Shown here in pieces: positions 4,321 through 32,236 of a DNA stretch of 64,000 nt (positions within the stretch are counted from its first letter, which is position 1; each line of letters starts with the position of its first letter). Location of the stretch: the NCBI GenBank assembly GCA_039906565.1, contig JBDMAX010000536.1, positions 225,716 through 289,715 of the forward strand, given 5' to 3'. A program made the position numbers and the translations under genes. The stretch is from Aegotheles albertisi. Its lineage: Eukaryota. The notes below the pieces were generated by a model, which did no database searches, was not told the origin of the DNA, and was given only the letters and a program-made list of their open reading frames with translations.

Positions 4321-4850
4321 GAGTGGTTTGGGTTGGAGGGGACCTTAAAGCTCATCCAGTGCCACCCCACCGCCGTGGGCTTGTGTGCGCTTGGAGCTCA
4401 AAGAGCCCCTGGGATCCTGGGCTGTGTCACCTGCAGCGTGAGCAGCAGGGCGAGGGAGGGGGTGATGGTTCTCCTCATCTGCTCTGCTCTGCTCTGGTGA
4501 GAGCCCTCCCTGTAATGCTGGGGCCAGGTCTGGGCCGCCCCAGCATCAGAAGGACACGGAGCTGTTGGAGCGAGTCCAGAGGAGGCCACGGAGATGCTCG
4601 GGGAGCTGGAGCAGCTCTGCTCTGGGGACAGGCTGAGAGAGTTGGGGGTGTTCAGCCTGGAGAAGAGAAGGCTCGTGGAGACCTTAGAGCACCTTCCAGT
4701 GCCTGAAGGGGCTCCTGGAAAGCTGGAGAGGGACTGGTGCCAAGGGCAGGGAGTGATGGGACGAGGGGGAACGGGTTCCAACTGAAGGAAGATGGATTTA
4801 GACTGGATTTTAGGAGGTTCTTCACTGCGTGGGTGGTGGGAATGTGTGAC
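4321..4850. mobile_element. Two CR1 LINE 3' fragments arranged tail to tail: antisense 3' end at 4321..~4545 and sense ORF2 C-terminus at ~4546..4850.
   Basis: 4321.. reads ggttggaggggaccttaaagctcatccagtgccacc, the reverse complement of the CR1 3' terminus. The ORF at 4594..4785 gives the CR1 ORF2 motif [14 protein letters not shown]. Mirrored in the right arm at about 22789..23318. Confidence 0.7.
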
Positions 4851-5129
4851 TGGGGTCACAAAAAAATCGGGCAGCGTCCTGTTTGGGGCAGAAAGCGTGT
4901 TGGCTGTGCAGCTCTTGGGGAGGGCAGGAGGAGGCTGGCTTCCTGGGTCAGTGATGAGTGTTGGCATGTATTATCTGATGTGGAGGTGATGTCTATCCCC
5001 ACTTTAGCTCTAGAATTACCCTGAGACCCAGGGAACTCCAGTTTCCCCCGGCAGTGACCTTTGAGCTTTTCCAGCGTGTGGAATCAAGTCACTGCCACAA
5101 ATCCTGTCCCAGCGCCAGGAGAAGGGGGG
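4841..5129 (+). repeat. Internal direct repeat, copy 2, immediately 3' of a sense CR1 fragment.
   Basis: Same as copy 1. Mirrored copies sit in the right arm at about 22510..22798 and 24098..24386. Confidence 0.8.
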
Positions 5130-8100
5130 GACGCAGTGTGAGTTTTGGTCCATTTACGTGTTCAGAGGTCTGGTTCTTGGCCTGGTACTGGATGGTACTG
5201 GGAGATGCTTCGGCGTTATCTGGATGCGTCTCCGGATCCCCAGAGCAGAACAGTGTTCGCAAATGCTGCTGTAGAGATTTGGTGGCAAACTTAACGAGCC
5301 TGTCTTAACGAGCGTGCCTGTTCTTCCTTCAGCGATACGGTTTAGTCCCACCTTGACACCCAGAATATCTGAAGGGTCATGCTCACATCTGCCCGTGGTC
5401 ACCATTAACACACGTGTGCAGGTTTGCTTTTGAAGGGGCCTGGTGTGGTTGTCTCTTCTGTTGGGGTTCGTTGAGTTATCTCTGAGGTGGCGTCACGGCT
5501 CAGCGGAAGGCGTGTGATCCCTGAGGGAGCAGAGGAGGTCCTGTATTGCTTCCATTTTCTGCATTTCTTCAGCAGAAAAGACTTGCATCAGCCTGATCTC
5601 CAAATGACAGCGTTTCACACTTTGTGGGTAGGTTCAGCTTCAGGTTCTGACTTGGGTTAGGGTTGCTCCAAGTGTGTGCTGGGAGAGGTCTGTCAGGATG
5701 GACCTGCCCAGCAATCCCCCATCTGCAGGGCTGGCTTGGTCTGGGTCAGCTTCCCGGGCTGCATGTGCAAAAGAGAAGTTGCAGCTCTCTAGTCAGTCTT
5801 GATCTAAACCCAAGGTGGTTCCTGTTTGTGCCCAGACACCTGAGAGAGACCTAAATGTTTCAGGCAACCCAAGAGGAGGGCCCCGATGTTCATAAGAAAT
5901 TCTTAACAGCTGTTTTTGCAGGTGACTCAACTGAGGAGTGAGAACCTAAAGCTGCTGGGGCTCATCTAGCTGTAATGAGGATGGAATTAATTATTTAAGT
6001 GCACAGGGTAAGTGGCAATCAAGGTACTCAAATCTCACTCGCTCTCTGTCTTCTGGGATCTGTGCCTGGCATTGCTCACCAGGATTTTGCAGCTGCAGGG
6101 GCTGGAGGAATTAGCCAGGGTGGGGAGGAGGGAACAGCAGCAGCATCGATCCTTCTCTTCCCACTCTCTGTCTCTTTTGTCCATTTTCATTAGATCTTAC
6201 TGCTACCTATTAATGGGGATTTCAAAACCTCATAAAGAGCACAGAAGAGGATTGAAGAGGTGACTGAAGGAGATAGGAGGAGAATGTTTAAGAGCAATTG
6301 ATTTAATGGGAATAAACTGCTTCAGGTGAAGTCAGGCTCTTCACTTTAGAATCACAACAAACATCACACCACAAAACACACAGTCGCAACAGTGGGAGAT
6401 GCTTCACCTTGTTCTGATGAGAGATGTGGTTGCTTTCCAAACCTTTCAGTCCACCTTCTAGTCCTGAGATGCTGCAGGCAAGTCCGTTTCCTTTTTGTGT
6501 GAATTAAATCACCATCATTTCTGCGAAGAGCATGAGCCAGCACCATGTGGATGGCCAGAGGATTTGAAGGCAATCCTATGGTCCGTAGTAGAACATCACT
6601 GCACCACCCTGTGCAGTGCCAAAGCCAATAGCAGAGAGTATTTCCTCGTAAGGCAGCCCTAGGAGAGGAGCACCAGCAGCCTGTTTTGGAGAGTGGTCTT
6701 CACACCATTTCAGGGTGGCAGTGTGGTCTGGTGCAGGCTTGTGCTCCCACCAGGACTGCAGGCACACACAGGGCAAGTCAGAAATGGCACCGGGTGTTCC
6801 TTGGTGACAGAAACCCCAGCGCCCGCCGTCACACTTCTCACTGATTGGTGTGGCATGGGCTTGTCTTCTGAAATTTCTGCCTGAAAGGTAAGAGCTGGAT
6901 TTCGAAGGCATCCAGAGAGGCCCCAGGGTGTGTGCTAGAGCAGTGACTGGTTAGCGGTTACATTTTTAATGCAAGCACTGACATGTCAGAGTGGTGCCTC
7001 TGCTTCCTAGAACACCACCTGGGAACCTCTGAAAGTGTGCACCGCTTCTCCTCTCCTGCATCGATACATTTGCAGTAACTGAGAAACAAAATATAAATTA
7101 TTGCTTCATTTGCAGGCGGGAAAATGCAATTTCCAGTTGATGTTTTCCTTAGAAGACCATACCTAGGTATTAAAACCACATTACATTGCATTGCTCACAC
7201 TGTGCTCACACAGCAATCGGAAAATGACCTCTCTTGGAATTTTATTAGAAGTCTTAGAGATTTGGCAACACTGGTTATGGGTTTGCCCTCTCCCAAAGGA
7301 GGGAGTTAACCGGGGTCTGTCACTGTATTGGTCACCCCCTGCCTCACACCTCTGTTTGCTGCCTTGGCAGAAATTCAGTTGTCAGCCCTCTCACTTTCTC
7401 TCAGGAAGGGCAGGAGAGGCAAAGTCCCAAAGGGTGCTGTGGACTGCAAAGATGTGCCCTTAACTGTCCCACGGTTCATCAGTCACAACCATGGCCATTC
7501 ACAGGAATGGCCTTGTTAGGCTTTGTACACACCAGTGACTGGCTGCGAGTTGCTGAAATAAAATAGTTTAATAATGTCTTGTACTTCCAAATTTTGGTTT
7601 GGTGTCTGTGCTTGTCCTTTTACATTTCTTTTCTTGCACTTCTAACCTGTAGATTTTCATGCCTTATACTCAGTTGCACTCACACTTCTTTAAGGAAGAT
7701 GGGAAAAGCTGTAACCTCTCTGGTAAATGGCTGGAATGGAAGAATAATCTCTAAGCTTTAAGAAGACAAGCAATTGGCCAAACCCTTTTCCAAATCCAAT
7801 GGCCGTCTGCCTACCATTTGCAGACCATTCCCTGTGAAGGCAAAAAGCAAAGTGCAGTCAGGGAAAGGACTGAATTATTTGGGTGAGATGAAGGGCCTAA
7901 CCCCAACTTTGGAGAAAATCTGTCGTGGTTTATTTTTTGGCTCTCTATACTAAGTCATGCCCTTTGTTGGCCAAACCAGTGCAACTCCCTGGAGAGGGAA
8001 AGATGTTTATTTCAGATGTGAGCACTCGTTTCTCTTGTGGCTTAGCATCTCCCACTGTACCCCCACACATGCATTTCTTCAGGAACACTGTCTTACCCCT

Positions 8101-9380
8101 GAAGTCTAGTACAGCTTCCCGTCAGCCATTCACCTCTTGGCCACCACATGTTGTTAGTACTCCACACACTTCTTTCTGCCTTCGTTCCTCTGAATGTTTG
8201 GCTGCAGATGCCATTCCAGGTGACTGACTCCCTCCCAGGATTGCCTGGAGACACTCACCCTGCACACTAAAGCTGTGTAGAGATGCTGGCTTGTGCACAG
8301 GAAGGGATCAAGCAGCATTAGCACTCGACTGATTTCTGAATTGGAGCTCAGCTCTCTCCACACAGCATCACATTGTGCCATATGCACAGTCCTGAAGTGA
8401 TTTGCCATCCCGTGTAGAGAAAAGGTAAATAAACAATGAAAACATGTCAAAGTCCCTGCACCCTTTTAGCATGGAGGCCTGGATTACAGCCCATCAGCTG
8501 TATCTGTTTTCATAGCTATTGCACTGTGCCGTCAGCCCCGTGTTTTACTAATGCTGTGTTCCTGGGCATTGGGAAGGTCGTTTTGCAAGGGATGTTGTGC
8601 ACACTTGGCCTCTGCTGGGTTTGTGATAAAAAGCTACTAATGTTATTTACCTTGTTTCTCAAAAGTATTTGAAAATCTAGGTTAATTCACAACTGGTGGA
8701 GCAGGAAAAAACTACAAGAAGAGTTGGCACACAGAGGAAAACAAGCTTCCCACAGTGGGAAAAGGACTACAGTCTCCAGCTAGGAATGCTTGTGAACTCC
8801 TTGATGAACATCTAGAAATGCGCACGGCACTGACCTTTGTGTTCTCTCTTTCACTAGATTTTAATGTTGCTTTTTTTGTTGATGTGGGCTGGTGTATTCT
8901 TTTCATTATAGCTGTATGAAGCTAAAGAGGCTGCAAAATCATTTTCCTTCTCACAGGTCGGGTGAGGAATGGGAGTGAGTGTGTAAGGACCAGCCCAGGC
9001 CAATGTAGCTGACTGCACTGCTGCTGGTTTGCTAACCTCACATCTGTGAGACACTTCTCGTTCTGGCTTTGTGTTGAGGAAGGTCATTTTCCAAGCCAGA
9101 GCCCACCTCTTCACCTGCAAACATTCTGCACACATTTGCTGTTATTTATTAAAGGAAGTTCTCTTGGGCTTTTATTTTTAAGCTGTGTGGCGCAGACCTG
9201 CGTGCTTGTTTATCTTTAACATCCACCCTCACCTCACACTTACAGAGTAGCTTGCTGCCCAAAGGCATTGCTGTATCCAGAGGAAAGAGTAGGATAACTG
9301 CTCAAAGAAATGTTAAAGAGCAAGAGCTTCTGCCCTATGTGACTGAACTGTGTGTGTCGTGATTTTTTTCTTTGCTCCTT

Positions 9381-10465
9381 CACAGAATCACAGAATCCTA
9401 GGGGTTGGAAGGGACCTCGAAAGATCATCTAGTCCAACCCCCCTGCCAGAGCAGGGTCACCTAGAGCAGGTCACACAGGAACGCATCCAGGCGGGGTTTG
9501 AATGTCTCCAGTGAAGGAGACTCCACAACCTCTCTGGGCAGCTGTTCCAGTGCTCTGTCACTCTCACAGTGAAAAAGTTTCTCCTTATATTCACATGGAA
9601 CCTCATGTGCTCCAGTTTGCAACCATTGCCCCTTGTCCTATCATTGGTCATCACTGACAAAAGCTTGGCTCCATCGTCCTGCCCCTCACCCTTTACATAT
9701 TTGTAACCATGGATGAGGTCACCCCTCAGTCTCCTTTTCTCCAAGCTAAAGAGACCCAGCTCCCTCAGCCTCTCCTCATAAGGGAGATGTTCCACTCCCT
9801 TCATCATCTTTGTGGCTCTGTGCTGGACTCTCTCAAGCAGTTCCCTGTCCTTCTTGAACTGTGGGGCCCAGAACTGGACACAATACTCCAGGTGTGGCCT
9901 CACCAAGGCAGAAGAGAGGGGGAGGAGAACCTCTCTTGACCTACTGACCACCCCCTTTCTAATGCACCCCAGGATGCCATTGGCCTTCTTGGCCACAAGG
10001 GCACATTGCTGGCTCATGGTCATTTTCATGTCCACCAGGACCCCCAGGTCCCTTTCTCCTACACTGCTCTCCAGCAGGTCAGCCCCCAGCCTGTACTGGT
10101 GCATGGGGTTGTTCTTCCCCAGATGCAAAACTCTGCACTTGCCCTTGTTGAATTTCATTAAGTTTCTCCCCGCCCAACTCTCCAGCCTATCAAGGTCTCT
10201 TTGAATGGCAGCACAACCCTCTGGTGTGTCAGCCACTCCTCCCAGTTTGGTGTCATCAGCAAACTTGCTGAGGATACATTCTGTACCCTCATCCAGGTCG
10301 TTGATGAAGATACTGAACAACACCGGTCCCAGTACCGACCCGTGAGGGACTCCACTGGTCACAGACCTCCAACGAGATTCTGTCCCATTGACTACAACTC
10401 TCTGACTTGTTCCCTTTAACCAGTTCTTGATCCACCTCACTACCTGATCACCAAACCCATACTTT
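9381..10465 (-). mobile_element. CR1 LINE, 5'-truncated. ORF2 reverse-transcriptase C-terminal region plus 3' UTR.
   Basis: ORF 9457..10440(-), 327 aa, with [42 protein letters not shown] and [13 protein letters not shown] motifs. The 3' tail ...gaggtcccttccaacccctaggattctgtg is present in antisense at 9381..9440. Confidence 0.9.
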
Positions 10466-13400
10466 ATTAGCTTATCTACGAGGATGCTCCTTCACGCAAT
10501 TGTTTTCATAATAACGGGGTATTGGGCAGTCTGAAACCCTGCCTCTAGAATCTTACACAAAGTTTCACTTTGCTGCCCATCTGTACTGCGAAAAGGAATG
10601 GATTCAGCCCTGCTCTTTGCAGGTATTGATAGATCCTAGTTGATGCTGGAGTAAAATTGTCTGTGTGTGTTCTGATTCCACTAACGCAAATTCATTGCTC
10701 GTGCTTGGGTAACAGCTGTTGGCCACAGAGATTGATGCTTTGCACATTCCCAGGGTGGGTTGCTGGGTGACTGTAATTGATGCCATTAATTCAAGGGACA
10801 CAGGGCAGAGGTGTTACAGAGACTCACTGTGCATAACAGTGTGCTGCACAAGCTGCACTTCCCAGCTGGCACACATGGATACAACCCCTTTTCATTCTGG
10901 AGTGATGCTGATGTTTATTGGTTATGGATTTAATGAGCATTTTAAACCTGTTCCCTTGGGGGGTTGTTCCTGATGTAGTATTCAGCATGTATTTCTCACA
11001 AAAAGCAGTGTCTAAGAGGAGGAAGCAATTCCCAACTAATAAATCAAGAGAGATATACTTACAAAGTAATTTGTTTTTCTTCCCAAACTGGAGTCCTTAG
11101 CTTAAATCTTTCAGGAGACATTTGTGAACTGAATCCCGGCTGCCTAAGTGGATTTTCTTTCAGTGTTGCTAAACACTGAGATTCTATTGGTGTGTGCACA
11201 CTACCAGCAAGTGCGAGTACAGCTGCTACATGGCAACTTGTAAAATCTAAGGTGATAGACTCCAGAAGGTCATGGAGTGCAGCTGAACATTAAAATAGTT
11301 TGCAGATGACCTCCTAGCAGCTCCATTAGCAAGGACTCTACTGTTCACAGAAACCCAAGCTGAACACTAGACAGTAACAGTGAGCTTACATTCTGCGATT
11401 AGATGTATGGCAGATTGATTTTTCTTCCCCACTATAGGGAGCGAGTTCTTTCATTGCTGCTTTTTTGTTGTCAATACTGTTTAATCAGACTGACAGAAGA
11501 TGGGCAGCTGGTGTGGCAGCTCCTGGTTAGCAGTGCTGTCCTGCAGGGAGTCTGGCTGTTGAGTCGGTGCCAGGGGAAATGTTCCATTTATTTTTACAAA
11601 GACTTAAAGTCCCTTTGTGGGTGTAAAGTGTTTGGTCTGCTGCCAATTGTTCCAGAGCATGTGCCTCTGCTTGTGCCATTATGAAGATCCATAGGATATT
11701 GAGGCACTGTCATTAAATTTCCTTACTACTGATGTTCTCAGGACTCTCGTGACTGAAAAAACATCACCTTGAGAAATTTTATTTTTATGACGTCTCAAAT
11801 ATGACCCACTGCCTTTGAAACTAGTTCTGCATAGGGGCAGTAGCTTGGTTCACAGAAGATGCTCTTGTCACCCTTTCACAAACCTCTTGTGCTGTGTTTT
11901 CACACTGCAGGTCTGGGACAATTACCCACAGCCACCTTGGCACTGGCGAGAGGAGAGAGAAGAAGAGAGAAGCAGTGTGGGATGTGGCAGCACTAAATCG
12001 TCTCTGTCCCCTCTGGGCTGTTGACTTGAAACCCTTGGTCTTTGCCACACCTTTGAGATGAAGAGCAGATGAACATGCATCATTGCTTTGATGTTCCATC
12101 TCTGTTAATGAGATGTTGAGGTGCTCATATGCAGGAAGTTGCTCAGTTCCCCCGATTTTTTTTCTCAACAACTTTCTGCATTATTTGTGATACCAACCAG
12201 TTGTTACCCAGCTCCCAGCTATATAAGCAGGCAGATACTTGTTTCTGACTCTGGGCAGAAAATAGTATGGCTGTGGACATTAGCTTCCACATGGGTGTTG
12301 GGTTTTGGTTTGGTTTTGTTGGTTTTTTTTTTCAAAAGACTTCAGGGATTAAATTCCCAGGTAGTGAAACAGATGTTGGACCATTAAAGAGAGTGAATGA
12401 CAACAGCTGGACAGCTGGTCTTAAGTCCTGACAGGCAAATAGAATTACAATAGTGTTGTAAAAAGCCTTTTTTCTCCCTGTTGTTCATATTCAGAAGCTG
12501 AAATACATGAGATAAGGAGTTGGCATCATGGGAAACATTGTGCAAACTGGACCATCTCAAAGCTATGATCATTGCTTGTACTGCAGCACTTGAAAAACTT
12601 AAAAATTTGAGCTTGAATGTTCAGCATCCTGATGATACTGACTGGAAAGAGGCCAAATTTCCCCTACAGTCTCCCTTCTAAAGGATGTGACTATCCAATA
12701 ATGTCTCCCCTGTTCTTCTGGCTTAGGGAGGCAGCTAGGAAACAGATACACAGACTAGAAATGCTTTCTCTCTCAGAGTAGCCAAAGCTGCAAAAAAAAT
12801 CCAGACTTTAGAGAACATGCTTACAAACAAAGGAAGCTTTGCTGAGTCCAAAGCGTGCCTTGGGCCAGCTTCCAAGAGTAGTGAAGGAATATTTTGGCAG
12901 AAACCTGGAGAAAAACTGACACTTGTGCCAGCTGCTGCTCTGCTGTTCACTGAAGTCAAGCTGTGGCCAAACAGAGCTTCCCTGCCTGAGCCAGTGCAGT
13001 TCTCTGCCCATGCAGACAGTCATAGCAGGCAGCATCAGGTGCTATTCATCCTGAGGGGGGGGGGAAATAAGCCAGGGACTGTTTGCCTTTCTCACCAGGA
13101 AGAGAGATTTATTTAAATTAGAGACCAGCATTGTCATTTTCAGCTGCTTCCTCAGATTTCACGTGTGAGAAGTTGGACAGGAAATCTTCCTTGGTCAGGC
13201 AGGAATTCAGGATCTGCCTTCTGCTTTAGTCCTCCTGCAAAATAGGCAGGTTTCAATCAGCAAGCTTTCCACATGCAAATTATATGTCAGAGCCCAGCAA
13301 TGGACACCAGGCCAGGTGAGCAGGACAGAGTCATGCAGCAAAAGCCATTAAGCAGTCACTGCCCTTGGGGATCAATCATTAATAATGATGTATACCCTCC

Positions 13401-14948
13401 ACTTGAAATTATAAAACGGTCTCTCAAGGTCTCTTTGAAATGCCTTAGCCAGGTCCCTGTGTTTCCCAGATCCTCCTCAGATTTCTTGTTGTGTAAAAAA
13501 AACACTAAAACTGAGACAATCATCAGAAAAGAAATCCCATACAATGATATCTGGGACCACCCTGCCAGTCCAGGAGCTGTGGCACCAAGTACTGCCCTGA
13601 AGCCTGAGCCTCAGTCCTCAGCTCCCTGTCAGCAAGTCTCCAAACTCACCTGCAGCTTCCATAGTGAGTTACTTAAGGGCAGCCCCAAGGTGGGGGGATA
13701 AGAGTTAATGGGGTGTTTAGGCATTTTTAAGGCATGGAAGAGTAACTATTCTGTGGTGGAAAGGAGACGCAGGTGCTGGGAATCAGCTCTTATTGCCTGA
13801 GGCTTAAATAGAATCTTGCTCTACAAAAAGCAGGGTGAGATTGTAGTTGGGTTGGATCTTTTGGGTTTCTGCTTCTGGTCTGGGCCTTTCTCTGGATTTA
13901 CTGAGTTGACCAGTTTTCATGCTTTTTTTATGGCCTGTGGGTGACATGATCCCACCCCATTAAAAAGCAAAATTTGTCTTCAAGCATCCCTGTAGCAAAG
14001 GAGAGAGCTTGTGATGAGGAGGAAGGAGGGGGGGAGGCAGGGGGCAAATCTTCTGGAAAATGATAAGGAAAAGAAAATGGTAAAAGTGTTACTTGTGCTT
14101 ATGAGTTGCAAGGCACGGGGAAGCGAGTTTGTCTGCTGGGCTCGGAGTTTCGTAGTCCTGGAAGACGCTGTAGGTCAGTCCAATAGGTCTGAAATCTAAC
14201 AGCCTCAAAGATGAGGGCTGTTATGGGAATCTGGTTGGGCATCCTGGGGAAGGCTGTAAGAGCAGCTGCTGTTGTGCTCTTTCTGCCTTGCGTGAGGTGG
14301 AGGACAGGTGCACTTTGCATCTCACCTAACTGCAAAAGCAGTGAGGCCGTGTGCTGGAACAAAGTCCCCCCTCTTAATGCTGGGGTGCTGCTTTTTGCCC
14401 CTTGCACAAATAGTACAGGGAAATAGAGAAAGAAACTAACACAGCCATGCACAGGGTCTGCAGCTCTTAGGTACCTGCTTTGGGAATGTGGTGAAAAGCG
14501 TGCACGGTACCAGTGCAGACAAGAACCCTTGAGTGCTCTCGACTCACTCAGAGTAAAACTGCTTTGGTCCTCTAGAAGCATGGGTGTATCTCCTTGTCTG
14601 GAGTTCTCACCATGTTGAGAGATGACCCTTAATCCTCCAGCCCCTGCTGACATTTAATAAAACTGGAAAGACAGATGTCTTTTATATATAATTTGTTTTG
14701 CCCCTGGGATTAAATAACTGCTGAAACATCTTTCTCCTTAGAAGTTTGAATTCACTTTTGCCATGAACAGAGCCAAGAGTGGCATGCAGAAGGGCTGAGG
14801 AAATGTGATTTAAGATGGTAACCTTTACACTGTGTTTGCAGTAGGGCCACGTGGCTGTCTGGTCATCTTAGCTTTAAGGGATCTAAGATACATTCAAACA
14901 CAGCACTTGAACTAGTACCTGTTACACAGCTGATAATTAGTCCCACAG

Positions 14949-17664
14949 CTACTGTGGAAGTGTCCCAAGTGTGCTGAAGTGGCGATAAGACAAGGAATAC
15001 CAGTCTGACATGTCAGGCCTGAAAAAGAGCAGAAAAAGTGCCAATCTCTGCTTTCCTGTTACAAGCAATTTGAAAATGTTTTCTGTTTCCAGACAGCGTA
15101 TAATCACAGAGTTACTTCTGAACCAAGTGACCTGGTAGTCTTGAACTACCTGTGTACAATAATATGTCCACTTTGTTCCAAAATGTGTTCCAAAAATGTG
15201 TTCCAAAATTTGTGGGACAAGTTCCTTCGTGCGGGAGGAGACTGGTCAGTACAGTGAGGAAACGCAGGGACAGAGCAGGCAAAACAGGACAGTTCTGTCC
15301 CTGCTACAAACCTACTGCAGAGCTGAGCACTCCAGCTATCCAGATGAAGGGATAACTTATTTAAAAAGAGCAGACAAAAGAGTAGGAAATGAGCCATGTG
15401 CAGCTCTAAACAGCCAGAAACAATAGGGCACCGGTCACACCTCAGGTTACACTCTTTGCTCTCCCTGCCAATGTGCTCTGCTGCAATAGTTGCTTCCCTG
15501 CAACCATGAGCAATGCTGGAGGCCTTGTGTGAGAGGCTTAAGTACATGAAACTGGGTGTTGGGCACCGTGTGTGTACCAGGGTATCTGTACAACGCTCTA
15601 AGCTGTAAAGACTGGGAATCTCTATAAATGTGTATGTTCAGCTTCTTTCTGTTCCTGCTGTTACACTTAATTGTGATTGTCCGGAGGGGGGACAGAGGCA
15701 ACTGCAGAGGGGAGAAACTCCCCTGTATTTTGCCCATTATACGGATTATGCCCTCTTCTGAGTTTGCTGAATAGAACTATTTCTGCACAGACAAGCTGCT
15801 GTAGGTGGGGCTGTTAAACTGTCAGATTGCCCTTTAACTGCCTACTGCTTTTATTCATGTGACAGACCGTGGAAGTTAACCCAGTAACTATGTGCTTGCT
15901 TTAACACCATGGTTCCTGGTAAATCAAATAGTGAATTGAAGCTTTTCAGATCAATAGGAAGATTCATTTTGTATACCTCACTGCAGCTGATTTGTTGAAG
16001 GCTGTTGTTAATGGATTTAGTGTTGTCAGAGTTCCTGATGTTAGATTACAGCCTGCAATTGCGAGAGATGGTGGCCTGGTCCTCTCTGGGAGTGGAGGAT
16101 AAAACTGAGCTCCGATTCCAACCCAAAGTGCCATAAGAAAGCCAGTGACAAGACCCACAAATGCACCCTGCAAAAGAAAACAAAAACTTAGATTTACACA
16201 AGTAAAGGGCATTTGAAAAAAACCAACAGCTAGATGAGTAGGACATGGTCAAGATCATCCAAACTGTAGGCTTCATAGCAAAAATTAAATACACAGCTGG
16301 GGAGAGCTGGGGAATTTACTTCATTCCCCTTTTAGGAAATACGGTGTTTGCTCACGGCTCCTGTGCAGACCTCTGTTTATTTCGTCACTATGCCTTTACA
16401 ATCAAAGGACAACTTTGGGCTCCATGGTGTATGGGAAAATACTGCTTTGTTTCAGGCCCTACTTGAACAAATACAGAAGCAATTTTTCCATTTTCGCATG
16501 TGAGCTGTTTTTGCAAGTTTCTTCCACTTCAGGGTTGGGGTTTGTTTGGCTGACAGCTAGCGATTAGTTTTTGGTGGTTTTTAGTATATACATAAAATTT
16601 GCAACTGCAGAAAGATGTAAAGGAAATGTCCTCACAGAAAGTATCAAAGACACCTCCTTTGCTGACCAACATAAAATTGTTTGGGGAAGAGACGGATGGA
16701 GATGCCCAAAACTATCAATGAATTTTGGATGAACAGAGCTTTAAATTTCTACTTACAATTCCATTGGCAAAGGAGCAGAGGATGCCCAAGGAAAACAGTC
16801 CTAAAAGGGGACCACCATTTGTGCCAAAAATGCTGAGTGCTGCCTGAGGAAGGAAAAGAGTGTGGTATCAGGTGCTGTGCAAGAAAATTAAAGCCTCCAA
16901 TGTGTCAAGAAGGGAAGATGTTGAGAAGGAAATTACAATATTACAATTAACTGCTTGAGAGAGTCCAGCGCAGAGCCACAGAGATGATGAAGGGAGTGGA
17001 ACATCTCCCTTATGAGGAAAGGCTGAGGGAGCTGGGGCTCTTTAGCTTGGAGAAAAGGAGACTGAGGGGTGACCTCATCCATGGTTACAAATATGTAAAG
17101 GGTGAGGGGCAGGACGATGGAGCCAAGCTTTTGTCAGTGATGACCAATGATAGGACAAGGGGCAATGGATGCAAACTGGAGCACAGGAGGTTCCATGTGA
17201 ATCTCAGGAAGAACTTCTTTACTGTGAGAGTGCCAGAGCACTGGAACAGCTGCCCAGAGAGGTTGTGGAGTCTCCTTCACTGGAGACATTCAAACCCCGC
17301 CTGGATGCGTTCCTGTGTGATGGACTCTGGGTGACCCTGCTCTGGCAGGGGGGTTGGACTGGATGAGCTTTCGAGGTCCCTTCCAACCCCTAGGATTCTG
17401 TGAATATTTTTTTTTAACTGGTGCATACTTGGCTGGCAGGACTTCATACAGCTACATGGGTGCTTAAAGCAGAGGCTGAGCCGTGGGCTGTTTGAAGCCA
17501 GTACCCAACAAAGAATAAACACTAATCTCATCATGATATCCAGCAATTATTTTCTCACATAATTCAACATGGGCATGAAAAAGCAGTCTGGCACCTACCT
17601 GCAACGTGGCTCCCAGGAGATGCCAGCACAGCCACAGCGATGCAGACTCCACCATAAAACAGGC
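14949..17664 (-). pseudogene. SLC5A8/SLC5A12-like (sodium-coupled monocarboxylate transporter) gene fragment. At least 4 exons: 17599..17664, 16757..16839, 15977..16167, 14949..15018. It carries a 1-bp frameshift and a premature stop.
   Basis: Translations: 17599..17664 gives LFYGGVCIAVAVLASPGSHVA (human SVVYGALCIGMAALASLMG). 16757..16839 gives ALSIFGTNGGPLLGLFSLGILCSFANGI (human [30 protein letters not shown]). 15977..16167 gives [30 protein letters not shown] (human [30 protein letters not shown]). 15018.. gives RPDMSDWYSLSYRHFSTLGTLPQ* (human DNWYSLSYLYFSTVGTLVTLLVG). Splice phases 1/2, 0/0 and 2/1 are consistent, with donors gtaggt, gtaagt and gtatac. After FSTLGTL the homology continues in the -1 frame (TVAVGLIISCVTG...LDP). 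Confidence 0.75.
16960..17401 (+). mobile_element. CR1 LINE 3' fragment.
   Basis: ORF 16984..17334(+) gives [32 protein letters not shown]...[14 protein letters not shown]. Ends with ggttggactggatgagctttcgaggtcccttccaacccctaggattctgtga at 17350..17401. Confidence 0.9.
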
Positions 17665-19514
17665 CTGTGTGGGAAAAGCAGAGATGTGCAAATCTGCCAC
17701 AGTTTGACAAGCCCTAATGGAAATGTTTCTGTCTAACCCAGCATGGTCCCTGACATCTCCAAAACAAACCTGCTAGCACCTGGGTTTTTTCCTAAGAGAC
17801 CTTGAAGTGGCCAAAAGGTCAGGTTTCTGTTAATTAGGCAAACCTGACCAAATCCTCTTCCTGTATATTACTAAAGATCAGTTGCTAAATGGCAGCCATG
17901 TGGATTGGTCATAGTGGCAATGCCACACAGATTGTTCGTATTGCTCAGCTGATCTCCTGTGTCATAGTCCTTATTTTGAGGGAATGATTTTTGCTTCTCA
18001 GTCCAAAGTCTTTGGAGCAAGAGGGTAAATGCTGGCAGGTAACTGGCAGCTGATGCTGTGATAAGGAACATCCTGAGTCACCAGGACACAGTGACTTGTC
18101 CCAGGAACCGTAACACTTTGTTTAAGAAACTGCTCTCAGGTGAAAATATTTAATACTTGTCACCTGTCACCAGTTTGCTGTGCTCACTGGTATGGGCTAT
18201 GACACCATGTTGGGACTGGTTTTTCCAAACTCACTGCCAACACTGTCTTGGGCTACACCTGCAACCGGTCACAGACACTGCAACTAGCAGAGATGGCAAT
18301 CACAATTCAGTGGTCCAAACCATCTGCTTGACCCAATTCTGACCCTCTTTGAGCTACATCAAACAGAGGAGCTAAGCAGACTGAGGGGCTGAGAGTGTAT
18401 CAGAGAAGACATGAAGCTTCTCATTCTCTGGAATGTTATTGGGACACAATGCTATTGTTCACATATCAGTTCAAAAGGTTTGCTACAAATCATTTCCTTT
18501 GCTTCTCATTTTTGACAGATGAAAGAAAAGTAACAGCCGTTTCAGGCTGAGACATTTGGCTTTGTAGCATTGCGACTCAATACAGATGCAGATCGATACT
18601 GAATAGAGATGCAATGAGTCTTCCCTACTTGAAGATCCAATATGCTGGAAAGGAACACTGTTTTTCAAGGCTAAGTTCCCAATGGTTGGGGGGGGAAGGA
18701 CCTTGCTAGGGGAGGAGATGGGTGGGGAGAACAATTTGTTTTTCATGGTCAACAGTGGCTGCTTGTTGTGTGTGGCAAAAAGAGCCATAATGCCTGAGCA
18801 CCATGTATTTATGCTCTGTCATGGCCTTAGCTGTAGCTCCCCTCAGCATGTGGGGAGACAGTGGGGTTATTGTATGTTCAGTTACTAAAGGGGAAGCCCT
18901 GGGGTTGGTGGCAACCCCTTGCTCTCTGGGTGTGGAAGCTGTGGGTGGCTCCAGACCAGGTGCCAGTGCCTGGTTGCTGCCTCCCAGAGACAGTCCTGGG
19001 AGGAAATGGGGGGTTTGTTGCTTTACAAGGGCAACTCCTGTGTTGTGTAAGCGCCGCACTGCAGCTCCGGAGGCAAAGGAGTGCTGGTGCTGACTGAATG
19101 GTACCCCACACTTTGATCTGGGGCACCCCGCCTCCCAAACCTGTCCCAGGTTTGCCTTTCCCAGGGGTGTGGGGAGGTGGGGGGCAGAGCATCTTTGTGC
19201 CAGCTGCCTGCAATGTAAACCTCGTGCACATGGCGAAACGTGGGAATTGCCCATTGCTCCCCTCATCTCCCAAGCAGACTTTGTCAGGGGACAGGCACTC
19301 AGACGGCACCACCGAAGCCAGCAGTGTAATTCCTATCTTTGCACACATGGTCTCACACCCAGTGGGATGCTGGGAGCCACCCTCGGACTCCCTTCCCAGC
19401 AGGCAGCCACTGACCAAGAGCTCTCCTCAGTGCCGGCCCTCACAGAACCCCTGCGGGGGTCTTGCAGGCAGGACATTGACCTCTAATGTGGTGTTTCTCT
19501 GTGTGTTGGTGCAG

Positions 19515-19644
19515 GGCCCTCTACACCAGCCTGGTGGGCCTCTGGGTGACCCAAGCCTGCACGGCCCTGTGTGGGCTGTCCCTCTGCTCCATCTGCAAGG
19601 ACTGCAACCCATGGATGTCCCAGCAGGTGTTGGCATTTAACCAG
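19515..19644 (+). CDS. Single SLC5A8-like exon on the plus strand, opposite to the other SLC5A8-like exons.
   Basis: gtgcag|G GCC CTC TAC ACC... translates to ALYTSLVGLWVTQACTALCGLSLCSICKDCNPWMSQQVLAFNQ, followed by a gtaggg donor. Human SLC5A8 has [45 protein letters not shown]. The frame is intact within this exon. Confidence 0.7.
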
Positions 19645-20139
19645 GTAGGGCCCCACATTTCAGGGGAAGGTGGCAAGGGGAAATCCTGCCTCTGCAGCCA
19701 GAACAGGTGGAAACCTGAAGGAAAATAAGTTATTCCTGTCAGTCAGATTCTTTTGGTGGAAACTGGAAACAAGATACTAAAAAGACCAACTTGTCTGTGA
19801 AAAAATGGTTCACCAGAAGAAAACCTTAAAATTCCTATTTCTTTCCAACTCTCGTATGTTGCAAAGGCCAACAGATGACAGTTTCCATGATAAGGAAATT
19901 GCTCTCGGGTACCCTCAGGTTATCAAACTGTATCCAAAACCCTTTTTGTGGAGTTAACAGCAGACAGAAGCATCTACTGTGGCACCCAAGCCCAACAGAG
20001 TGATGTACAATACAGACTATCTGCTGCCATACGCCCTTGCCAGTGGAAACAGAGCCTGACGGCACGCTCACCTCTGCTGGGTGCTCTAAAAAGACTGCAG
20101 GATCTCAAGTGGATGTTTTAGGATTGGTTTTCTCTGTAG

Positions 20140-23100
20140 AATGGCCATGGTTGTGACTGATGAACCGTGGGACAGTTAAGGGCACATCTTTGCAGTCCAC
20201 AGCACCCTTTGGGACTTTGCCTCTCCTGCCCTTCCTGAGAGAAAGTGAGAGGGCTGACAACTGAATTTCTGCCAAGGCAGCAAACAGAGGTGTGAGGCAG
20301 GGGGTGACCAATACAGTGACAGACCCCGGTTAACTCCCTCCTTTGGGAGAGGGCAAACCCATAACCAGTGTTGCCAAATCTCTAAGACTTCTAATAAAAT
20401 TCCAAGAGAGGTCATTTTCCGATTGCTGTGTGAGCAAAGTGTGAGCAATGCAATGTAATGTGGTTTTAATACCTAGGTATGGTCTTCTAAGAAAAACATC
20501 AACTGGAAATTGCATTTTCCTGCCTGCAAATGAAGCAATAATTTATATTTTGTTTCTCAGTTACTGCAAATGTATCTATGCAGGAGAGGAGAAGCGGTGC
20601 ACACTTTCAGAGGTTCCCAGGTGGTGTTCTAGGAAGCAGAGGCACCACTCTGACATGTCAGTGCTTGCATTAAAAATGTAACCGCTAACCAGTCACTGCT
20701 CTAGCACACACCCTGGGGCCTCTCTGGATGCCTTCGAAATCCAGCTCTTACCTTTCAGGCAGAAATTTCAGAAGACAAGCCCATGCCACACCAATCAGTG
20801 AGAAGTGTGACGGCGGGCGCTGGGGTTTCTGTCACCAAGGAACACCCGGTGCCATTTCTGACTTGCCCTGTGTGTGCCTGCAGTCCTGGTGGGAGCACAA
20901 GCCTGCACCAGACCACACTGCCACCCTGAAATGGTGTGAAGACCACTCTCCAAAACAGGCTGCTGGTGCTCCTCTCCTAGGGCTGCCTTACGAGGAAATA
21001 CTCTCTGCTATTGGCTTTGGCACTGCACAGGGTGGTGCAGTGATGTTCTACTACGGACCATAGGATTGCCTTCAAATCCTCTGGCCATCCACATGGTGCT
21101 GGCTCATGCTCTTCGCAGAAATGATGGTGATTTAATTCACACAAAAAGGAAACGGACTTGCCTGCAGCATCTCAGGACTAGAAGGTGGACTGAAAGGTTT
21201 GGAAAGCAACCACATCTCTCATCAGAACAAGGTGAAGCATCTCCCACTGTTGCGACTGTGTGTTTTGTGGTGTGATGTTTGTTGTGATTCTAAAGTGAAG
21301 AGCCTGACTTCACCTGAAGCAGTTTATTCCCATTAAATCAATTGCTCTTAAACATTCTCCTCCTATCTCCTTCAGTCACCTCTTCAATCCTCTTCTGTGC
21401 TCTTTATGAGGTTTTGAAATCCCCATTAATAGGTAGCAGTAAGATCTAATGAAAATGGACAAAAGAGACAGAGAGTGGGAAGAGAAGGATCGATGCTGCT
21501 GCTGTTCCCTCCTCCCCACCCTGGCTAATTCCTCCAGCCCCTGCAGCTGCAAAATCCTGGTGAGCAATGCCAGGCACAGATCCCAGAAGACAGAGAGCGA
21601 GTGAGATTTGAGTACCTTGATTGCCACTTACCCTGTGCACTTAAATAATTAATTCCATCCTCATTACAGCTAGATGAGCCCCAGCAGCTTTAGGTTCTCA
21701 CTCCTCAGTTGAGTCACCTGCAAAAACAGCTGTTAAGAATTTCTTATGAACATCGGGGCCCTCCTCTTGGGTTGCCTGAAACATTTAGGTCTCTCTCAGG
21801 TGTCTGGGCACAAACAGGAACCACCTTGGGTTTAGATCAAGACTGACTAGAGAGCTGCAACTTCTCTTTTGCACATGCAGCCCGGGAAGCTGACCCAGAC
21901 CAAGCCAGCCCTGCAGATGGGGGATTGCTGGGCAGGTCCATCCTGACAGACCTCTCCCAGCACACACTTGGAGCAACCCTAACCCAAGTCAGAACCTGAA
22001 GCTGAACCTACCCACAAAGTGTGAAACGCTGTCATTTGGAGATCAGGCTGATGCAAGTCTTTTCTGCTGAAGAAATGCAGAAAATGGAAGCAATACAGGA
22101 CCTCCTCTGCTCCCTCAGGGATCACACGCCTTCCGCTGAGCCGTGACGCCACCTCAGAGATAACTCAACGAACCCCAACAGAAGAGACAACCACACCAGG
22201 CCCCTTCAAAAGCAAACCTGCACACGTGTGTTAATGGTGACCACGGGCAGATGTGAGCATGACCCTTCAGATATTCTGGGTGTCGAGGTGGGACTAAACC
22301 GTATCGCTGAAGGAAGAACAGGCACGCTCGTTAAGACAGGCTCGTTAAGTTTGCCACCAAATCTCTACAGCAGCATTTGCGAACACTGTTCTGCTCTGGG
22401 GATCCGGAGACGCATCCAGATAACGCCGAAGCATCTCCCAGTACCATCCAGTACCAGGCCAAGAACCAGACCTCTGAACACGTAAATGGACCAAAACTCA
22501 CACTGCGTCCCCCCCTTCTCCTGGCGCTGGGACAGGATTTGTGGCAGTGACTTGATTCCACACGCTGGAAAAGCTCAAAGGTCACTGCCGGGGGAAACTG
22601 GAGTTCCCTGGGTCTCAGGGTAATTCTAGAGCTAAAGTGGGGATAGACATCACCTCCACATCAGATAATACATGCCAACACTCATCACTGACCCAGGAAG
22701 CCAGCCTCCTCCTGCCCTCCCCAAGAGCTGCACAGCCAACACGCTTTCTGCCCCAAACAGGACGCTGCCCGATTTTTTTGTGACCCCAGTCACACATTCC
22801 CACCACCCACGCAGTGAAGAACCTCCTAAAATCCAGTCTAAATCCATCTTCCTTCAGTTGGAACCCGTTCCCCCTCGTCCCATCACTCCCTGCCCTTGGC
22901 ACCAGTCCCTCTCCAGCTTTCCAGGAGCCCCTTCAGGCACTGGAAGGTGCTTCAAGGTCTCCCTGGAGCCTTCTCTTCTCCAGGCTGAACACCCCCAACT
23001 CTCTCAGCCTGGCCCCAGAGCAGAGCTGCTCCAGCTCCCCGAGCATCTCCGTGGCCTCCTCTGGACTCGCTCCAACAGCTCCGTGTCCTTCTGATGCTGG

Positions 23101-26100
23101 GGAGGCCCAGACCTGGCCCCAGCATTACAGGGAGGGCTCTCACCAGAGCAGAGCAGAGCAGATGAGGAGAACCATCACCCCCTCCCTCGCCCTGCTGCTC
23201 ACGCTGCAGGTGACACAGCCCAGGATCCCAGGGGCTCTTTGAGCTCCAAGCGCACACAAGCCCACGGCGGTGGGGTGGCACTGGATGAGCTTTAAGGTCC
23301 CCTCCAACCCAAACCACTCTGGCATTCGGTGACTTTTTGGTTTTGTTTCAAACGCGATGTCGCAAATCGCGTTGGTGACTCCACACCCCGAATTCTCCCA
23401 AATTCTGGGGACAAAAATTAACCCCCGATGAGCTTTGAACAAAGAAAAGCCACCTCACACCTTCTCCAGTTGCACGCCGAGGCTTCCAGAAGGCATCTGA
23501 CGTTCACGAAGCCACCAACCCAGCAGGTCAACGTTTACCTGACGCAGCCAGGCCGTTACAGCCAGCAACCCTGTGCAAAATTGATTAAACAAAATGACCC
23601 TTTAGGAAAAGATACTGAAAGCTCAGGCAAAACACTAACATTTTCTTAAAAAAAACCAACCAACCAATCAACAAAACCAAACCGAAGGCTCAAACTGCTC
23701 CCCGCGGGCCGGAGGCGACATTTAGGACTGTTCTGCATCCAGGCTGTGCATTGGTCCTGCCCGTTCCTCTCGCCCTACGGCGAGCCCCAGAGCAAATGAA
23801 TTCCCTGGCAGAAACGAGTGAACGCAGGTCAGCAACAACCCCAGCAACCCCCTGACCCCCAGGTTTAATTACAACGTGTCATAAAATCAACGGGAATGGG
23901 CAAATCCCTCTGTTTTCCCCAGGAAACGACATCTGCGGCGTTTCTGGCCACGTTTCAAGAGGTCACTAGGCAAGTCCAACCTCCAGAAAGCCCCTGAGTC
24001 AGCAGAAGCCTGCTCAAAACAAATCACCTCCTCCTGATCAAAACACCCCCGACAGACAAAGAAAAGAAAACAAAAGGACGCACAGCAACCGTGTGCCCCC
24101 CCCTTCTCCTGGCGCTGGGACAGGATTTGTGGCAGTGACTTGATTCCACACGCTGGAAAAGCTCAAAGGTCACTGCCGGGGGAAACTGGAGTTCCCTGGG
24201 TCTCAGGGTAATTCTAGAGCTAAAGTGGGGATAGACATCACCTCCACATCAGATAATACATGCCAACACTCATCACTGACCCAGGAAGCCAGCCTCCTCC
24301 TGCCCTCCCCAAGAGCTGCACAGCCAACACGCTTTCTGCCCCAAACAGGACGCTGCCCGATTTTTCTGTGACCCCATTCACACATTCCTGGAGACGTGAC
24401 CAGAGATTCACCACGCGAGCAGCCAAGCCACTCTCTGGAAGCACTGGAGCCTCCTGGGTATCTGTTTTCACCACGGTTTGCATGAGAAGGAAAAGGAAAC
24501 ACACAACAGATGGAGATCAGCGCCAGTGAACAAATGAGATGCAGAGCAAGCCCTTGTCACGCTCTGCCTTCCTTTCTGCTGGTTTTTCCTGTTGGTTTAA
24601 TGAGGTGGCGAATGGTTTCCCAAGCCATGAACAGCTCGGGGTGCAGTGATCCCTCGCACACAGGACCTGCATCACGCCTGTGCAGCACAGACAGCACTGC
24701 TGCTGCCAGGCAGTACTCACACGTTGCCTGCCCTTGCCCCAGGTGACCATGTCCAGGCCATGTGCTTCTCCAAACGCCACGGGCCATCGGGTTTGTCATC
24801 GCGCCGTCCGCATGGCACAGCGCGTGGCACAGCGCAGAGGGACAACGCAGCACTCCTTCTCCTGGAATGCAGGGGCTGACAGAAGCATTCTTTTTGAACA
24901 GCACCACCCCCACGTTCACATCACCATGAGAAACAGGAAACAAAATGCTACAGAGCCCAGGTTTTGCCCTGAGCAACAACATCTCCTGGGAAATGTCCCC
25001 TCCTCGGTTTTCTCGTCCAGCCCACAGGGAGCTCCCTCACCAGTGGCCAGGGGCACGTGGCAAACGCCGTGACCTGTGCGTCTGCTGTGCAGGACAGCAA
25101 ACAGCTCCTCTCCAGCTGTTGTGCTGTCACACACGGACCCAAACCAACTCCACAGCTCCCCTGCAGCTGCAATGCCCTGCAGATCCCCTGCCCTGGCTGC
25201 AGATCGTCCTGCAGCACCGCAGAGCTGGGGGCTCGCAGAAATAACACCGGAGGCTTTTGGCCAGCAGAAGCCCTGCCGAGGCCCAGCAAGCAGGTTTCGC
25301 CGTTTCCATGCGAGCGTTACAGCCCACAGCAGAGCTGGGATTCCAGGCCAGTCCCGCTGCTGCTGGGGCACGGGCAGGCACAGCTCCAGCAGCTGCTCAG
25401 GGAGAACAGCGACAGTCAGAGCCTGCCCCTGTCTGGAGCTGCAGCCTCTCGGGTTTGCACCAGGGCTCGCACAAGATGGGAAGTGAAAAACCAGACTGGA
25501 CTGTGAGAAATTTGTTCTACAGCAACGGTGAGCAAAGCAGAGCGAGACAAAGTGCTTCTTCTCAGGTGAAAAGTGCACAACAAATCAGTAATTCCCGAGC
25601 AGACAGGAGCAATTCCCGTGGTACCTGCAGAGAGGAGCAGATCCGAGAGACACAGTGCAAGGACTGAACAGCACAGCACCACTTTTGTCTCGTGCTGAAA
25701 CACGAACACCCTGCACTGACACAGGAAGGCCATGTGCTACAGTTATAGCTCACAGAGTCATTGCAGAACGTTCAATGTCTGTGAACAGACAGCAATATAG
25801 ATTTGTGTATCTATGAAACCCAAACCTTTCCTCTCCCTCTGACCACACGCAGCTCTCACCTCCACAGACGAGTGATCATCCACAAACCCCAGCGCAGCCT
25901 GCAGCTGGAACGTGTGCTGAGCAGGCAGCTAAAGACTCCCGAGAGTGCAGACACAGCCGTGAGCCGAGGGCCCTCACCAGCACCCCGTGGCACTGGGATC
26001 CAGTCGCTGGGGGCTGCCCGGCAACCCGCGCCCCCCCGATGGACGCTGCGAGCGGCAGCGTTTGCCAGGCCGAGCAGGGCAGGGCTGTGCCCGGCTCCAG

Positions 26101-27636
26101 CAGCGTCCGACCGGGGGAGCCGCGCGGAAAGGCGGCTGCGGCCTCCGGGCAGGGAACGGGGCCCCCACGAGGTCGCCTCGGGGCGATGCCGGAGCTCAGC
26201 TGAGAGCCGCCCCCCCCCGCAGAGCCCGGGGACCGACACCGCAGCTCCCCCCTGTGCGTGGCGGGGGGCGCGGGGCAGGAGAGCAGCGGCTGCGGAGCGC
26301 AGCCCAAGCCCCCCGGGAAGGGCGTTCGCGGTGCCGGAACCAGCCGGCCCCGACCCGGCCGCCGGGCCCTGGCCCAGGCCGAGCCGCGCAGGCCACGAGG
26401 GGGCCGGGGCCGCCCCCGCCGCCTCCCCGGGGCTCTCCCCGGGGCCCGGGCAGGCTCGGTCTCGCCGCCGGGGCCCCCGGCTCCCCCCCAGCTCCCCCCC
26501 AGGCCGCAGCCGGGCCCGACCCCGCTCCGCCGCCTCCCCCGCGCGCACCCCCCGGAGCGCCCGGCAGCGCGGGCCCAGGGGCGCCGCGCGGCAGGACCCC
26601 GCCATAGCTGCCCGCGGCGTTCGCCTGACCCGCGCGCGCCGGCGGAGGCGGTGCCGCGGCCGGGCAGGAGCTGGCACCGCGGCGGCGCCCCGCGCCCCGC
26701 AAGGACCCCGCCCCGCCAGGACCCCGCCCCGCAGGCGCGGGCTCCTCAGCGGCCGCCGGGGCAGGAGCCGCTCCTGGAGCTCGGCCCCGGCTCCCCGCAC
26801 AGAAACCCCCGCGCCGGCCCGGGGAAAGCCTCGCCGGCTGCCGACGCGCCGAGCCGGGCGGGCGCCGCCCGTGCGTGTGCGGGAACGCCCCGTGGGGCCG
26901 CGTGAGGCGCGGTTCGCAGAGCTGGGCCCGAACGCAATGGAGGGGCGGCCTGAGCTTGGGCCCGGCCCGTGACACAGCCTGGGCAGTGCCGGCTGCCCTG
27001 GAGCGCTTGGAAACGAGGCCTCTCGGTGTGCCTGGGGGGGCTGTGGGGGCTCTCGGGGCGTTTGAAATCCCGCAGCCGTGTGTGCGGTACCCGATGGTGC
27101 TGCTCTCCCTGCAGGGTGCTCTGGGGAGCAGCTGCCAGTGGGGGCACAGAGGGGCTTGGGGGAGAAGGGACCCCTGGAGATGATCTGCCCCAAGCCCTGC
27201 ACGAGCAGAGGCAGCTGCCCAGGACCACGTCCACTTGGGTGTTGGCATCTCCAAAGATGGAGACTCCTCAACCTCTCTGGACAGCGTGTGCGGGGTTTGA
27301 GCTGCCCTTACAGGCAGACCAGGGTGGGTATTTGTGTGCAGAGGGGATTTGGGGGATTTTATGTGTGCTCGTTGCCTGTGGGCACTGCTGAGGGGTGCCT
27401 GGCTCCCTCCCCTTCCATACCATGGGACGTTCATGCATGTAGATTAGGATCCCCCTGAGCCTTCTCCCCAGGCTAAGCAGCCCCAGCTCTCTCTGCAAGC
27501 TCCAGACCCTCCATGATCCTCCATCCCTGGCCTCTCTCCAGCACTGGGGATCCCAGCACTGGACAGAGCAACTCCAGCTGTGGCCTCACCAGCGCGGAGT
27601 GACTTCCCCAAGGAGTCCAGGGGAGGTGTGTTCTGC
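20140..27636. repeat. Right arm of the large inverted repeat. It probably continues past 27636, pairing with sequence left of the window.
   Basis: Mirror of 1..7500. About 1% substitutions are visible as amino-acid changes between mirrored ORFs. One indel is visible: ORF 4398..4967 is intact on the left but split on the right as 22672..23094 and 22814..23242. Confidence 0.9.
25850..27040. promoter_or_regulatory. CpG island at the outer end of the right arm. Mirror copy of 600..1790.
   Basis: Same composition as the left-arm island. ORFs 25803..26972(+) and 25856..27271(-) mirror 664..1833(-) and 365..1780(+). Confidence 0.6.
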
Positions 27637-29352: not shown

Positions 29353-29424
29353 TTAAGCCTGGTATTTGCCAACGTGTTCACGAGCTATGATCATCCTTTG
29401 AATCTGAGCAGTTCCCTCGTAAAT
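29353..29424 (-). CDS. ACADM: ACADM exon 12, the last coding exon, including the TAA stop.
   Basis: tcttttcag|ATT TAC GAG GGA ACT GCT CAG ATT CAA AGG ATG ATC ATA GCT CGT GAA CAC GTT GGC AAA TAC CAG GCT TAA translates to IYEGTAQIQRMIIAREHVGKYQA*. Human has [23 protein letters not shown]. Confidence 0.9.
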   Translation of the reverse strand: MYEGTAQIQRMIIAREHVGKYQA

Positions 29425-29538
29425 CTGAAAAGAATCATCGCAGTAATGTTAGCTGGTTGATTTTTAAAATATTCTTGTAAACCTTCACAGCATGGACTCG
29501 GATGTGCAGAAAGACAGAAAACTGAAAAAATCCCAGTG

Positions 29539-29578
29539 ATTAATGAATTAATGAAAAATTAATGAAAAATTAATGAAC
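29539..29578. repeat. Short AT-rich tandem repeat, (attaatgaaaa)n, in ACADM intron 11.
   Basis: attaatgaattaatgaaaaattaatgaaaaattaatgaac. Confidence 0.8.

Positions 29579-31948: not shown

Positions 31949-32236
<288 letters not shown>

Follow-up and report, generated by a model that had tools for sequence, protein, structure and literature searches.

A 64,000-nucleotide stretch of the genome of the bird Aegotheles albertisi (contig JBDMAX010000536.1, positions 225,716 to 289,715 of the forward strand; here called the window) contains, at window positions 12011-20141, an 8-kb internal piece of SLC5A8, the gene for SMCT1 (sodium-coupled monocarboxylate transporter 1; sodium:solute symporter family, Pfam PF00474). 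This piece is probably an unprocessed, partial and nonfunctional copy of the gene. All of it was shown to come from a single source, which began in intron 6, ended in intron 14 (about 11.4 kb in the coordinates of an antbird SLC5A8 locus) and now lies in two blocks of opposite orientation. The two blocks are adjacent and do not overlap in the antbird locus, and their introns are homologous to its introns; they therefore trace back to one SLC5A8 genomic source. Only 6 of the 15 exons (exons 7 and 10 to 14) are kept, and these are divided between two strands rather than lined up on one. Judged from its sequence, the fragment cannot encode a transporter; it is an ordinary pseudogene fragment, and thus a known kind of object.

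The identity of the fragment was established by comparison with SMCT1 proteins. After repair of the reading frame, the translation of the minus-strand exons matched residues 390-544 of human SMCT1 (PDB 7sl9_A) with an E value of 1.8e-45, and the plus-strand exon matched residues 280-318 of the same protein with an E value of 1.6e-7 (tblastn, 5e-9; orthologue hidden Markov model, 5.6e-12). An earlier note on this DNA, made from the letters alone, had listed five exon pieces of an SLC5A8/SLC5A12-type protein; all five are present at a level far beyond chance, and the coordinates proposed for exons 7, 10 and 12 were exact. The hidden Markov model (HMM) was built from 15 SMCT1 orthologues and was run, with filters off, against every six-frame open reading frame (ORF) of at least 12 amino acids (aa) in the 64 kb; beyond exons 7 and 10 to 14, it detected no further exon anywhere in the window. 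The whole-window protein search that the earlier note had proposed likewise recovered exon 7 on the plus strand and exons 10 to 14 on the minus strand, and no continuous, intact gene model on a single strand was found. Exons 1 to 6, 8 to 9 and 15 left no trace in any frame of the 64 kb by tblastn, HMM or blastn. The human SMCT1 sequence used as a query was validated by its 99% identity to the Pongo sequence. When homologous proteins were sought with a 151-aa SMCT1 query, only short fragments were returned, with zero birds among the matches listed, and the 610-aa human query returned mammals only among the 120 matches listed. A bird reference was obtained by searching protein representatives with platypus SMCT1; a cluster look-up assigned the resulting sequence (P0149) to the antbird Willisornis vidua, whose SMCT1 it is (KAJ7404617.1).

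The antbird gene has 15 exons, and its genomic locus (L003) was compared with the window by blastn. Block 1 (window 12011-18640, minus strand) extends from within intron 9 to within intron 14, includes exons 10 to 14, and is colinear with L003 34917-28033 at 73-83% identity, introns included. Block 2 (window 18643-20141, plus strand) carries exon 7 together with portions of introns 6 and 7 and is colinear with L003 23539-26242 at 71-88% identity, again with introns included. All remaining matches between the window and L003 were confined to one CR1 element. The parts of the source gene that are missing are everything upstream of intron 6 (exons 1 to 6), the segment L003 26242-28033 (exons 8 and 9), and all sequence past the middle of intron 14, exon 15 included. 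Two other assignments were considered and dropped: a processed (retro) pseudogene was ruled out because introns are present and homologous to those of the antbird gene, and slc5a8l, a paralogue lost in tetrapods (PMC9309457), was set aside in view of the introns, which are homologous to those of SLC5A8 proper. Block 1 is interrupted in the intron between exons 10 and 11 by a CR1 3' fragment (16949-17403, plus strand) that shares about 95-96% identity with the window's other CR1 copies; it is missing from the homologous antbird position and was therefore inserted after the two lineages split.

The earlier note had also raised the alternative of two partial paralogue copies, in which exon 7 and exons 10 to 14 would come from different paralogues or from separate insertions. 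Two observations were in line with such a history: the GC content at third codon positions (GC3) is 0.88 in exon 7 compared with 0.30-0.45 in exons 11 and 12, and exon 7 is only 47% identical to human SMCT1. The antbird exon 7 region, however, is likewise locally GC-rich, and relative to bird SMCT1, exon 7 (18 of 43 residues different) is no more diverged than exons 12 to 14 (48 of 134). Moreover, the two blocks represent neighboring stretches of the source gene without overlap, and no more than 2 bp separate them in the window. A separate origin for exon 7, which we had entertained on the basis of GC3 and the identity to the human protein, was withdrawn once the GC-rich antbird exon 7 and the intron homology were seen, and we now regard two independent copies as highly improbable.

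Exon coordinates were set by three-frame reading and inspection of splice sites, and the parental ag/gt sites still flank exons 7 and 10 to 13. Exon 7 (19515-19644, plus strand) encodes aa 279-322 in an open frame between conserved splice sites (cag/G and CAG/gtaggg). On the minus strand, exon 10 (17599-17664) corresponds to about aa 388-408 and has intact splice sites and a shifted frame. Exon 11 (16757-16843) encodes aa 409-440, AALSIFGTNGGPLLGLFSLGILCSFANGI, in an open frame with intact ag/gt sites, and 77 of its 87 nucleotides are identical to the antbird exon. Exon 12 (15977-16167) covers aa 441 to about 503, also in an open frame, with 156 of 191 nucleotides as in antbird and one in-frame 3-bp difference (tblastn E value, 2.6e-13; HMM E value, 3.4e-19). 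Exon 13 (14919-15018) corresponds to about aa 510-544 and carries a frameshift after FSTLGTL. Exon 14 (13118-13234) corresponds to about aa 545-575 and reads GGLKQKADPEFL / LTKEDFLSNF, with a change of frame after DPEFL. Several details of the earlier description needed adjustment. Exon 11 ends at 16843, so that the proposed end at 16839 fell 4 nt short; the last of the minus-strand exons listed was correctly recognized, but it runs on to 14919 and had been cut at 14949, just past the frameshift; and exon 14 had been missed, so that the four exons listed were not all of those on the minus strand. The splice phases, which had been called correct, do not hold for exon 10, in which a 2-bp deletion leaves 66 nt where 68 are required.

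Three of the six exons carry frame-disrupting changes. In exon 10, a TC dinucleotide (2 bp) is deleted at about 17612-17623, which shifts the frame and accounts for the 66 nt compared with 68 nt in antbird. In exon 13, a 1-bp deletion relative to antbird lies at about 14955, and the original frame meets a TAG at 14949-14951; this frameshift and stop, after FSTLGTL, had been reported in the earlier note and are real. Exon 14 has gained an extra C (a 1-bp insertion) at about 13193-13202; the resulting frame continues to a TAA, and an AATAAA follows at 13108-13113. The donor position of exon 14 reads GA here and GT in antbird, and the splice donor has thus probably been lost. All three indels fall in short homopolymer or dinucleotide contexts, as might be expected if they were consensus errors in an assembly in which the strand switch and the large palindrome surrounding the fragment (see below) were themselves chimeric. 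Such an artefact might also leave nearly identical palindrome arms, which are indeed present, and the left arm runs off the edge of the window. Yet the arms differ by 23 substitutions and 4 indel events in a patchy distribution that is unlike copy-paste, and the rate of indels in the arms (4 in 7.5 kb) predicts only about 0.3 indels in the roughly 0.56 kb of exons, in which 3 were observed. The pseudogene-like substitutions described next are independent of the indels, and the junctions at the strand switch and at the right arm are clean joins of old, diverged sequences. We therefore judge an assembly artefact to be very unlikely, and consensus error, which had been named as a finding that would refute the earlier proposal, is an unlikely explanation for the three indels.

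Nucleotide identity to antbird is 78-91% in the exons and about 78-81% in the well-aligned introns. Exon conservation is thus no better than that of the introns, and the exons have drifted about as fast. Over 208 repaired codons, the pairwise comparison with antbird gave a nonsynonymous rate (dN) of 0.154 and a synonymous rate (dS) of 0.277, for a ratio (Ka/Ks) of 0.56. Since the antbird gene is presumably constrained, this ratio suggests that, since the two sequences split, the lineage of the fragment has mostly evolved near-neutrally. In the protein comparison, 36-42% of the residues of the fragment differ from bird SMCT1, compared with only about 19-30% between bird and platypus. A functional SMCT1 would be expected to show an open frame of about 610 aa and purifying selection; the fragment shows neither, and only homology to SMCT1 was found. 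The earlier proposal of a pseudogene was thus borne out, with three frameshifts rather than the single one first noticed, with a Ka/Ks of 0.56 and with exons that have diverged like introns.

Three junctions bound the two blocks. At the first (12010/12011), SLC5A8 homology breaks off within intron 14, at a point that in the antbird gene lies about 330 bp short of exon 15, and 4.5 kb of sequence of unassigned origin (7501-12010) adjoins it. No Pfam family was detected in the ORFs of 40 aa or more between 7.4 and about 14 kb, within the spacer of the palindrome; ORFs from 14 to 20 kb and in the rest of the window were read by eye only. At the second junction (18641/18642), reversed intron 9 (about L003 28033) is joined to forward intron 6 (about L003 23539). 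It is a clean inversion join with at most 2 unassigned bases, as the blocks end at 18640 and 18643 in sensitive blastn, and it lies within the interval 17664-19515 in which the earlier note had placed an inversion breakpoint. At the third junction (20131-20141), intron 7 of SLC5A8 gives way to the right palindrome arm at the inner end of the latter. Here the window reads ...TCTCTGTAGAA and then, in the arm, TGGCCATGG; the antbird parent continues ...TCTCTGTAGAAAACC (GAAAACC), and the arm parent, taken from the left copy, reads ...TTCCTGTGAATGGCCATGG; ...TTCCTGTGAATGGCC. A microhomology, CTGT(A)GAA, is common to both parents. The SLC5A8 DNA stops exactly at the inner boundary of the right arm, and the segment with exons 8 and 9 is cut off where the fragment meets that arm. 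Microhomology could be assessed at the third junction only, because only one parental sequence is available for the first and the second is too old, showing 0-2 ambiguous nucleotides after long divergence. No reciprocal inversion junction was found in the window by blastn against L003.

The palindrome consists of a left arm (1-7500, plus strand), cut by the start of the window, and a right arm (20139-27635, minus strand), separated by a 12.6-kb spacer. The arms are at least 7.5 kb long and 99.6% identical, and the 30 differing columns cluster at 198-479, 3747-4687 and 7062-7504, with identical tracts of 1.7-2.2 kb between them, as expected under patchy gene conversion or a very recent duplication. 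The arms may be either young (0.3% divergence) or old and homogenized by gene conversion. The left arm closes at its inner end with a hairpin that has a perfect 8-bp stem and a 4-nt loop (GGCCATTC-ACAG-GAATGGCC, 7493-7512). The right arm ends at the same base, which suggests that the hairpin defined the end of the inverted duplication. In the earlier note, recombination between the arms had been offered as a plausible cause of the strand switch; such recombination would flip the whole spacer and would not place its parts on opposite strands. The link between the fragment and the palindrome is a different one, in that the SLC5A8 DNA ends at the right arm boundary with microhomology.

Each arm holds a CpG island, two copies of the small nucleolar RNA (snoRNA) gene SNORD45 and one relic exon of RABGGTB, the gene for Rab geranylgeranyltransferase beta. 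The four SNORD45 copies recognized with Rfam lie at 3355-3439 and 4946-5030 on the plus strand and at 22609-22693 and 24197-24281 on the minus strand (score, 59.8 bits; threshold, 42). The RABGGTB exon (4063-4182, plus strand; 23458-23577, minus strand) lies between the SNORD45 copies and downstream of the CpG island, which has a GC content of 71%; it is strongly diverged, with 65% identity to human aa 197-236 (PDB E value, 2e-12), and no other RABGGTB exon was found in the 64 kb. The arrangement looks like a decayed RABGGTB copy that was retained as a snoRNA host. The right arm adjoins ACADM, in the same order as at human 1p31.1.

We propose that an internal piece of SLC5A8 reached the ACADM/RABGGTB region, as a copy or by relocation, in a rearrangement with several breakpoints, perhaps through replicative template switching or microhomology end joining. 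The exon 7 segment is inverted relative to exons 10 to 14, and the two meet at 18641-18642. In the same or a later event, the inverted duplication would have been built, would have ended at the hairpin and would have deleted the part with exons 8 and 9; its inner boundary would then be the CTGT(A)GAA junction beside the short hairpin. Under this proposal, the fragment was probably dead on arrival and never functional at the ACADM locus, and an intact SLC5A8 probably exists elsewhere in the A. albertisi genome.

The setting of the fragment bears on whether it arrived from elsewhere or was broken in place. The window is avian DNA, with several CR1 long interspersed nuclear element copies and a gene that has only bird-protein relatives. 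ACADM (29359-38793, minus strand) lies next to the right arm, with all exons from aa 40 to aa 420 present. Human SLC5A8 is located at 12q23. ACADM, RABGGTB and SNORD45C are neighbors at human 1p31.1 (PMC4581711). Around antbird SLC5A8, neither ACADM nor RABGGTB was found within 10 kb, and no other gene was called there. Probes for motifs of UTP20, MSH4 and an anoctamin, based on human proteins, had no matches within the window. Since the fragment is an internal piece with both outer ends in introns, and since it is surrounded by ACADM, RABGGTB and SNORD45, the SLC5A8 DNA is a guest in a foreign locus. The earlier note had favored a gene disrupted by an inversion or rearrangement. The inversion junction is real, but the idea that this was the native gene is probably wrong, as exons and flanks are missing; exons 1 to 6, 8 to 9 and 15, the native flanks and the reciprocal junction are all absent from the window, which argues against a simple inversion in situ, and a native gene broken in place is probably not what is seen here.

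A more elaborate version of native gene loss would have the only SLC5A8 of the species shattered by a multi-breakpoint event that moved its pieces, leaving a bird without SMCT1. This version accommodates the intron-level homology to a true bird SLC5A8 and the apparent lack of constraint for most of the time since the antbird split, and the search for SLC5A8 copies covered the 64-kb window. It is harder to reconcile with the absence of any SLC5A8 flanking DNA accompanying the fragment, both ends of which are intronic, with surroundings that form a conserved ACADM/RABGGTB neighborhood, and with the presence of the gene in other birds: it is annotated in antbird, and its expression is studied in chicken. 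In the literature, no paper was found that linked SLC5A8 loss to birds. On balance, we consider such a loss unlikely. A chromothripsis-like shattering of the sole SLC5A8, with true loss of SMCT1 and with one fragment landing beside ACADM, is rather improbable as well; in a weaker variant of this scenario, exons 10 to 14 together with the AATAAA at 13108-13113 would form the 3' end of a noncoding SNORD45 host transcript, driven from the right arm, where the CpG island of the relic RABGGTB would supply a promoter on the same strand.

Several points count against our preferred interpretation, that of an unprocessed partial copy carried into a foreign locus. No in-frame stop was found in the 208 repaired codons, in which roughly 3 to 4 would be expected; this shortage may mean that the copy was constrained during part of its history, or it may be due to chance. 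From the window, an intact parent SLC5A8 and a duplicative event are both no more than probable, and the insertion of the fragment, its internal inversion and the formation of the palindrome may have taken place in any order. Finally, the native neighbors of bird SLC5A8 were not seen in the 10 kb around the antbird locus.

Apart from the fragment and the palindrome, two genes in the window were noted. The exons of ACADM, the gene for medium-chain acyl-CoA dehydrogenase (MCAD), are well conserved, at 67-100% identity to human across aa 40-420, except for an in-frame TGA at 36257-36259, at a position that is Leu in all solved MCAD structures (GGLGLGSFEACLITEE*AYGCTG). If the palindrome continues past the window, this ACADM could be a redundant duplicate; alternatively, it may be a null allele, or the TGA may be a base error. 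A CpG island of about 60% GC (40300-41500) lies just upstream of the first detected ACADM exon and presumably represents the promoter and first exon; exons 1 and 2 (aa 1-39) were not located. Farther along, at 46962-48757 on the minus strand, lies an apparently intact two-exon gene of a bird-only multicopy family without a Pfam domain. Relatives in Grus, Mycteria, Falco and Anas bear the name "proline-rich protein 36-like" or are listed as uncharacterized, and one in Falco peregrinus is located about 280 kb from a chromosome end. At the Grus and Falco "proline-rich protein 36-like" loci, homology to the window was limited to the gene itself, so that these loci were uninformative about synteny.

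The fragment resembles SLC5A8 proper in its protein, exon boundary and intron homology. It departs from SLC5A8 in that only 6 of 15 exons remain, on two strands, with the frame shifted three times, one splice donor probably lost and substitution close to neutral. It is similar to the unprocessed (duplicated) pseudogenes of segmental-duplication mosaics in its introns, splice sites, intronic breakpoints, disablements and lack of constraint, and also in lying beside a piece of an unrelated gene, the RABGGTB relic; it differs from these in that the parent copy in the same genome is inferred only. Template-switching rearrangements, attributed to fork stalling and template switching (FoSTeS) or microhomology-mediated break-induced replication (MMBIR), include duplication-inverted triplication-duplication (DUP-TRP/INV-DUP) structures, and inverted duplications can also be initiated by hairpins. 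Here, likewise, several junctions fall within a few kb, an internal segment is inverted and an inverted duplication is present; the third junction also has a microhomology of 7 of 8 nt, and the short hairpin lies at the arm end. Unlike those cases, the event is old and both parents can be compared at only one junction, and serial separate events could have produced the same structure. Large, spacer-containing palindromes, such as those of sex chromosomes, are kept uniform by arm-to-arm gene conversion. The palindrome in the window is like them in its arms of at least 7.5 kb with 99.6% identity, its patchy differences and its 12.6-kb spacer, and unlike them in that its arms carry snoRNA genes and a gene relic, with no amplified protein-coding family.

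These results caution against the annotation of an "SLC5A8-like" gene at window positions 12011-20141. They also provide a record of rearrangement in which comparison with an outgroup gene places three breakpoints to within a few bases, and the microhomology at the inner edge of a hairpin-ended palindrome bears on the origin of spacer-containing palindromes. The ACADM/RABGGTB region is rearranged in A. albertisi, and its gene content deserves a closer look. In birds, the product of SLC5A8 transports lactate and butyrate; if it were true that the species has no other SLC5A8, the fragment would mark a lineage-specific loss of the main sodium-coupled transporter of lactate and short-chain fatty acids.

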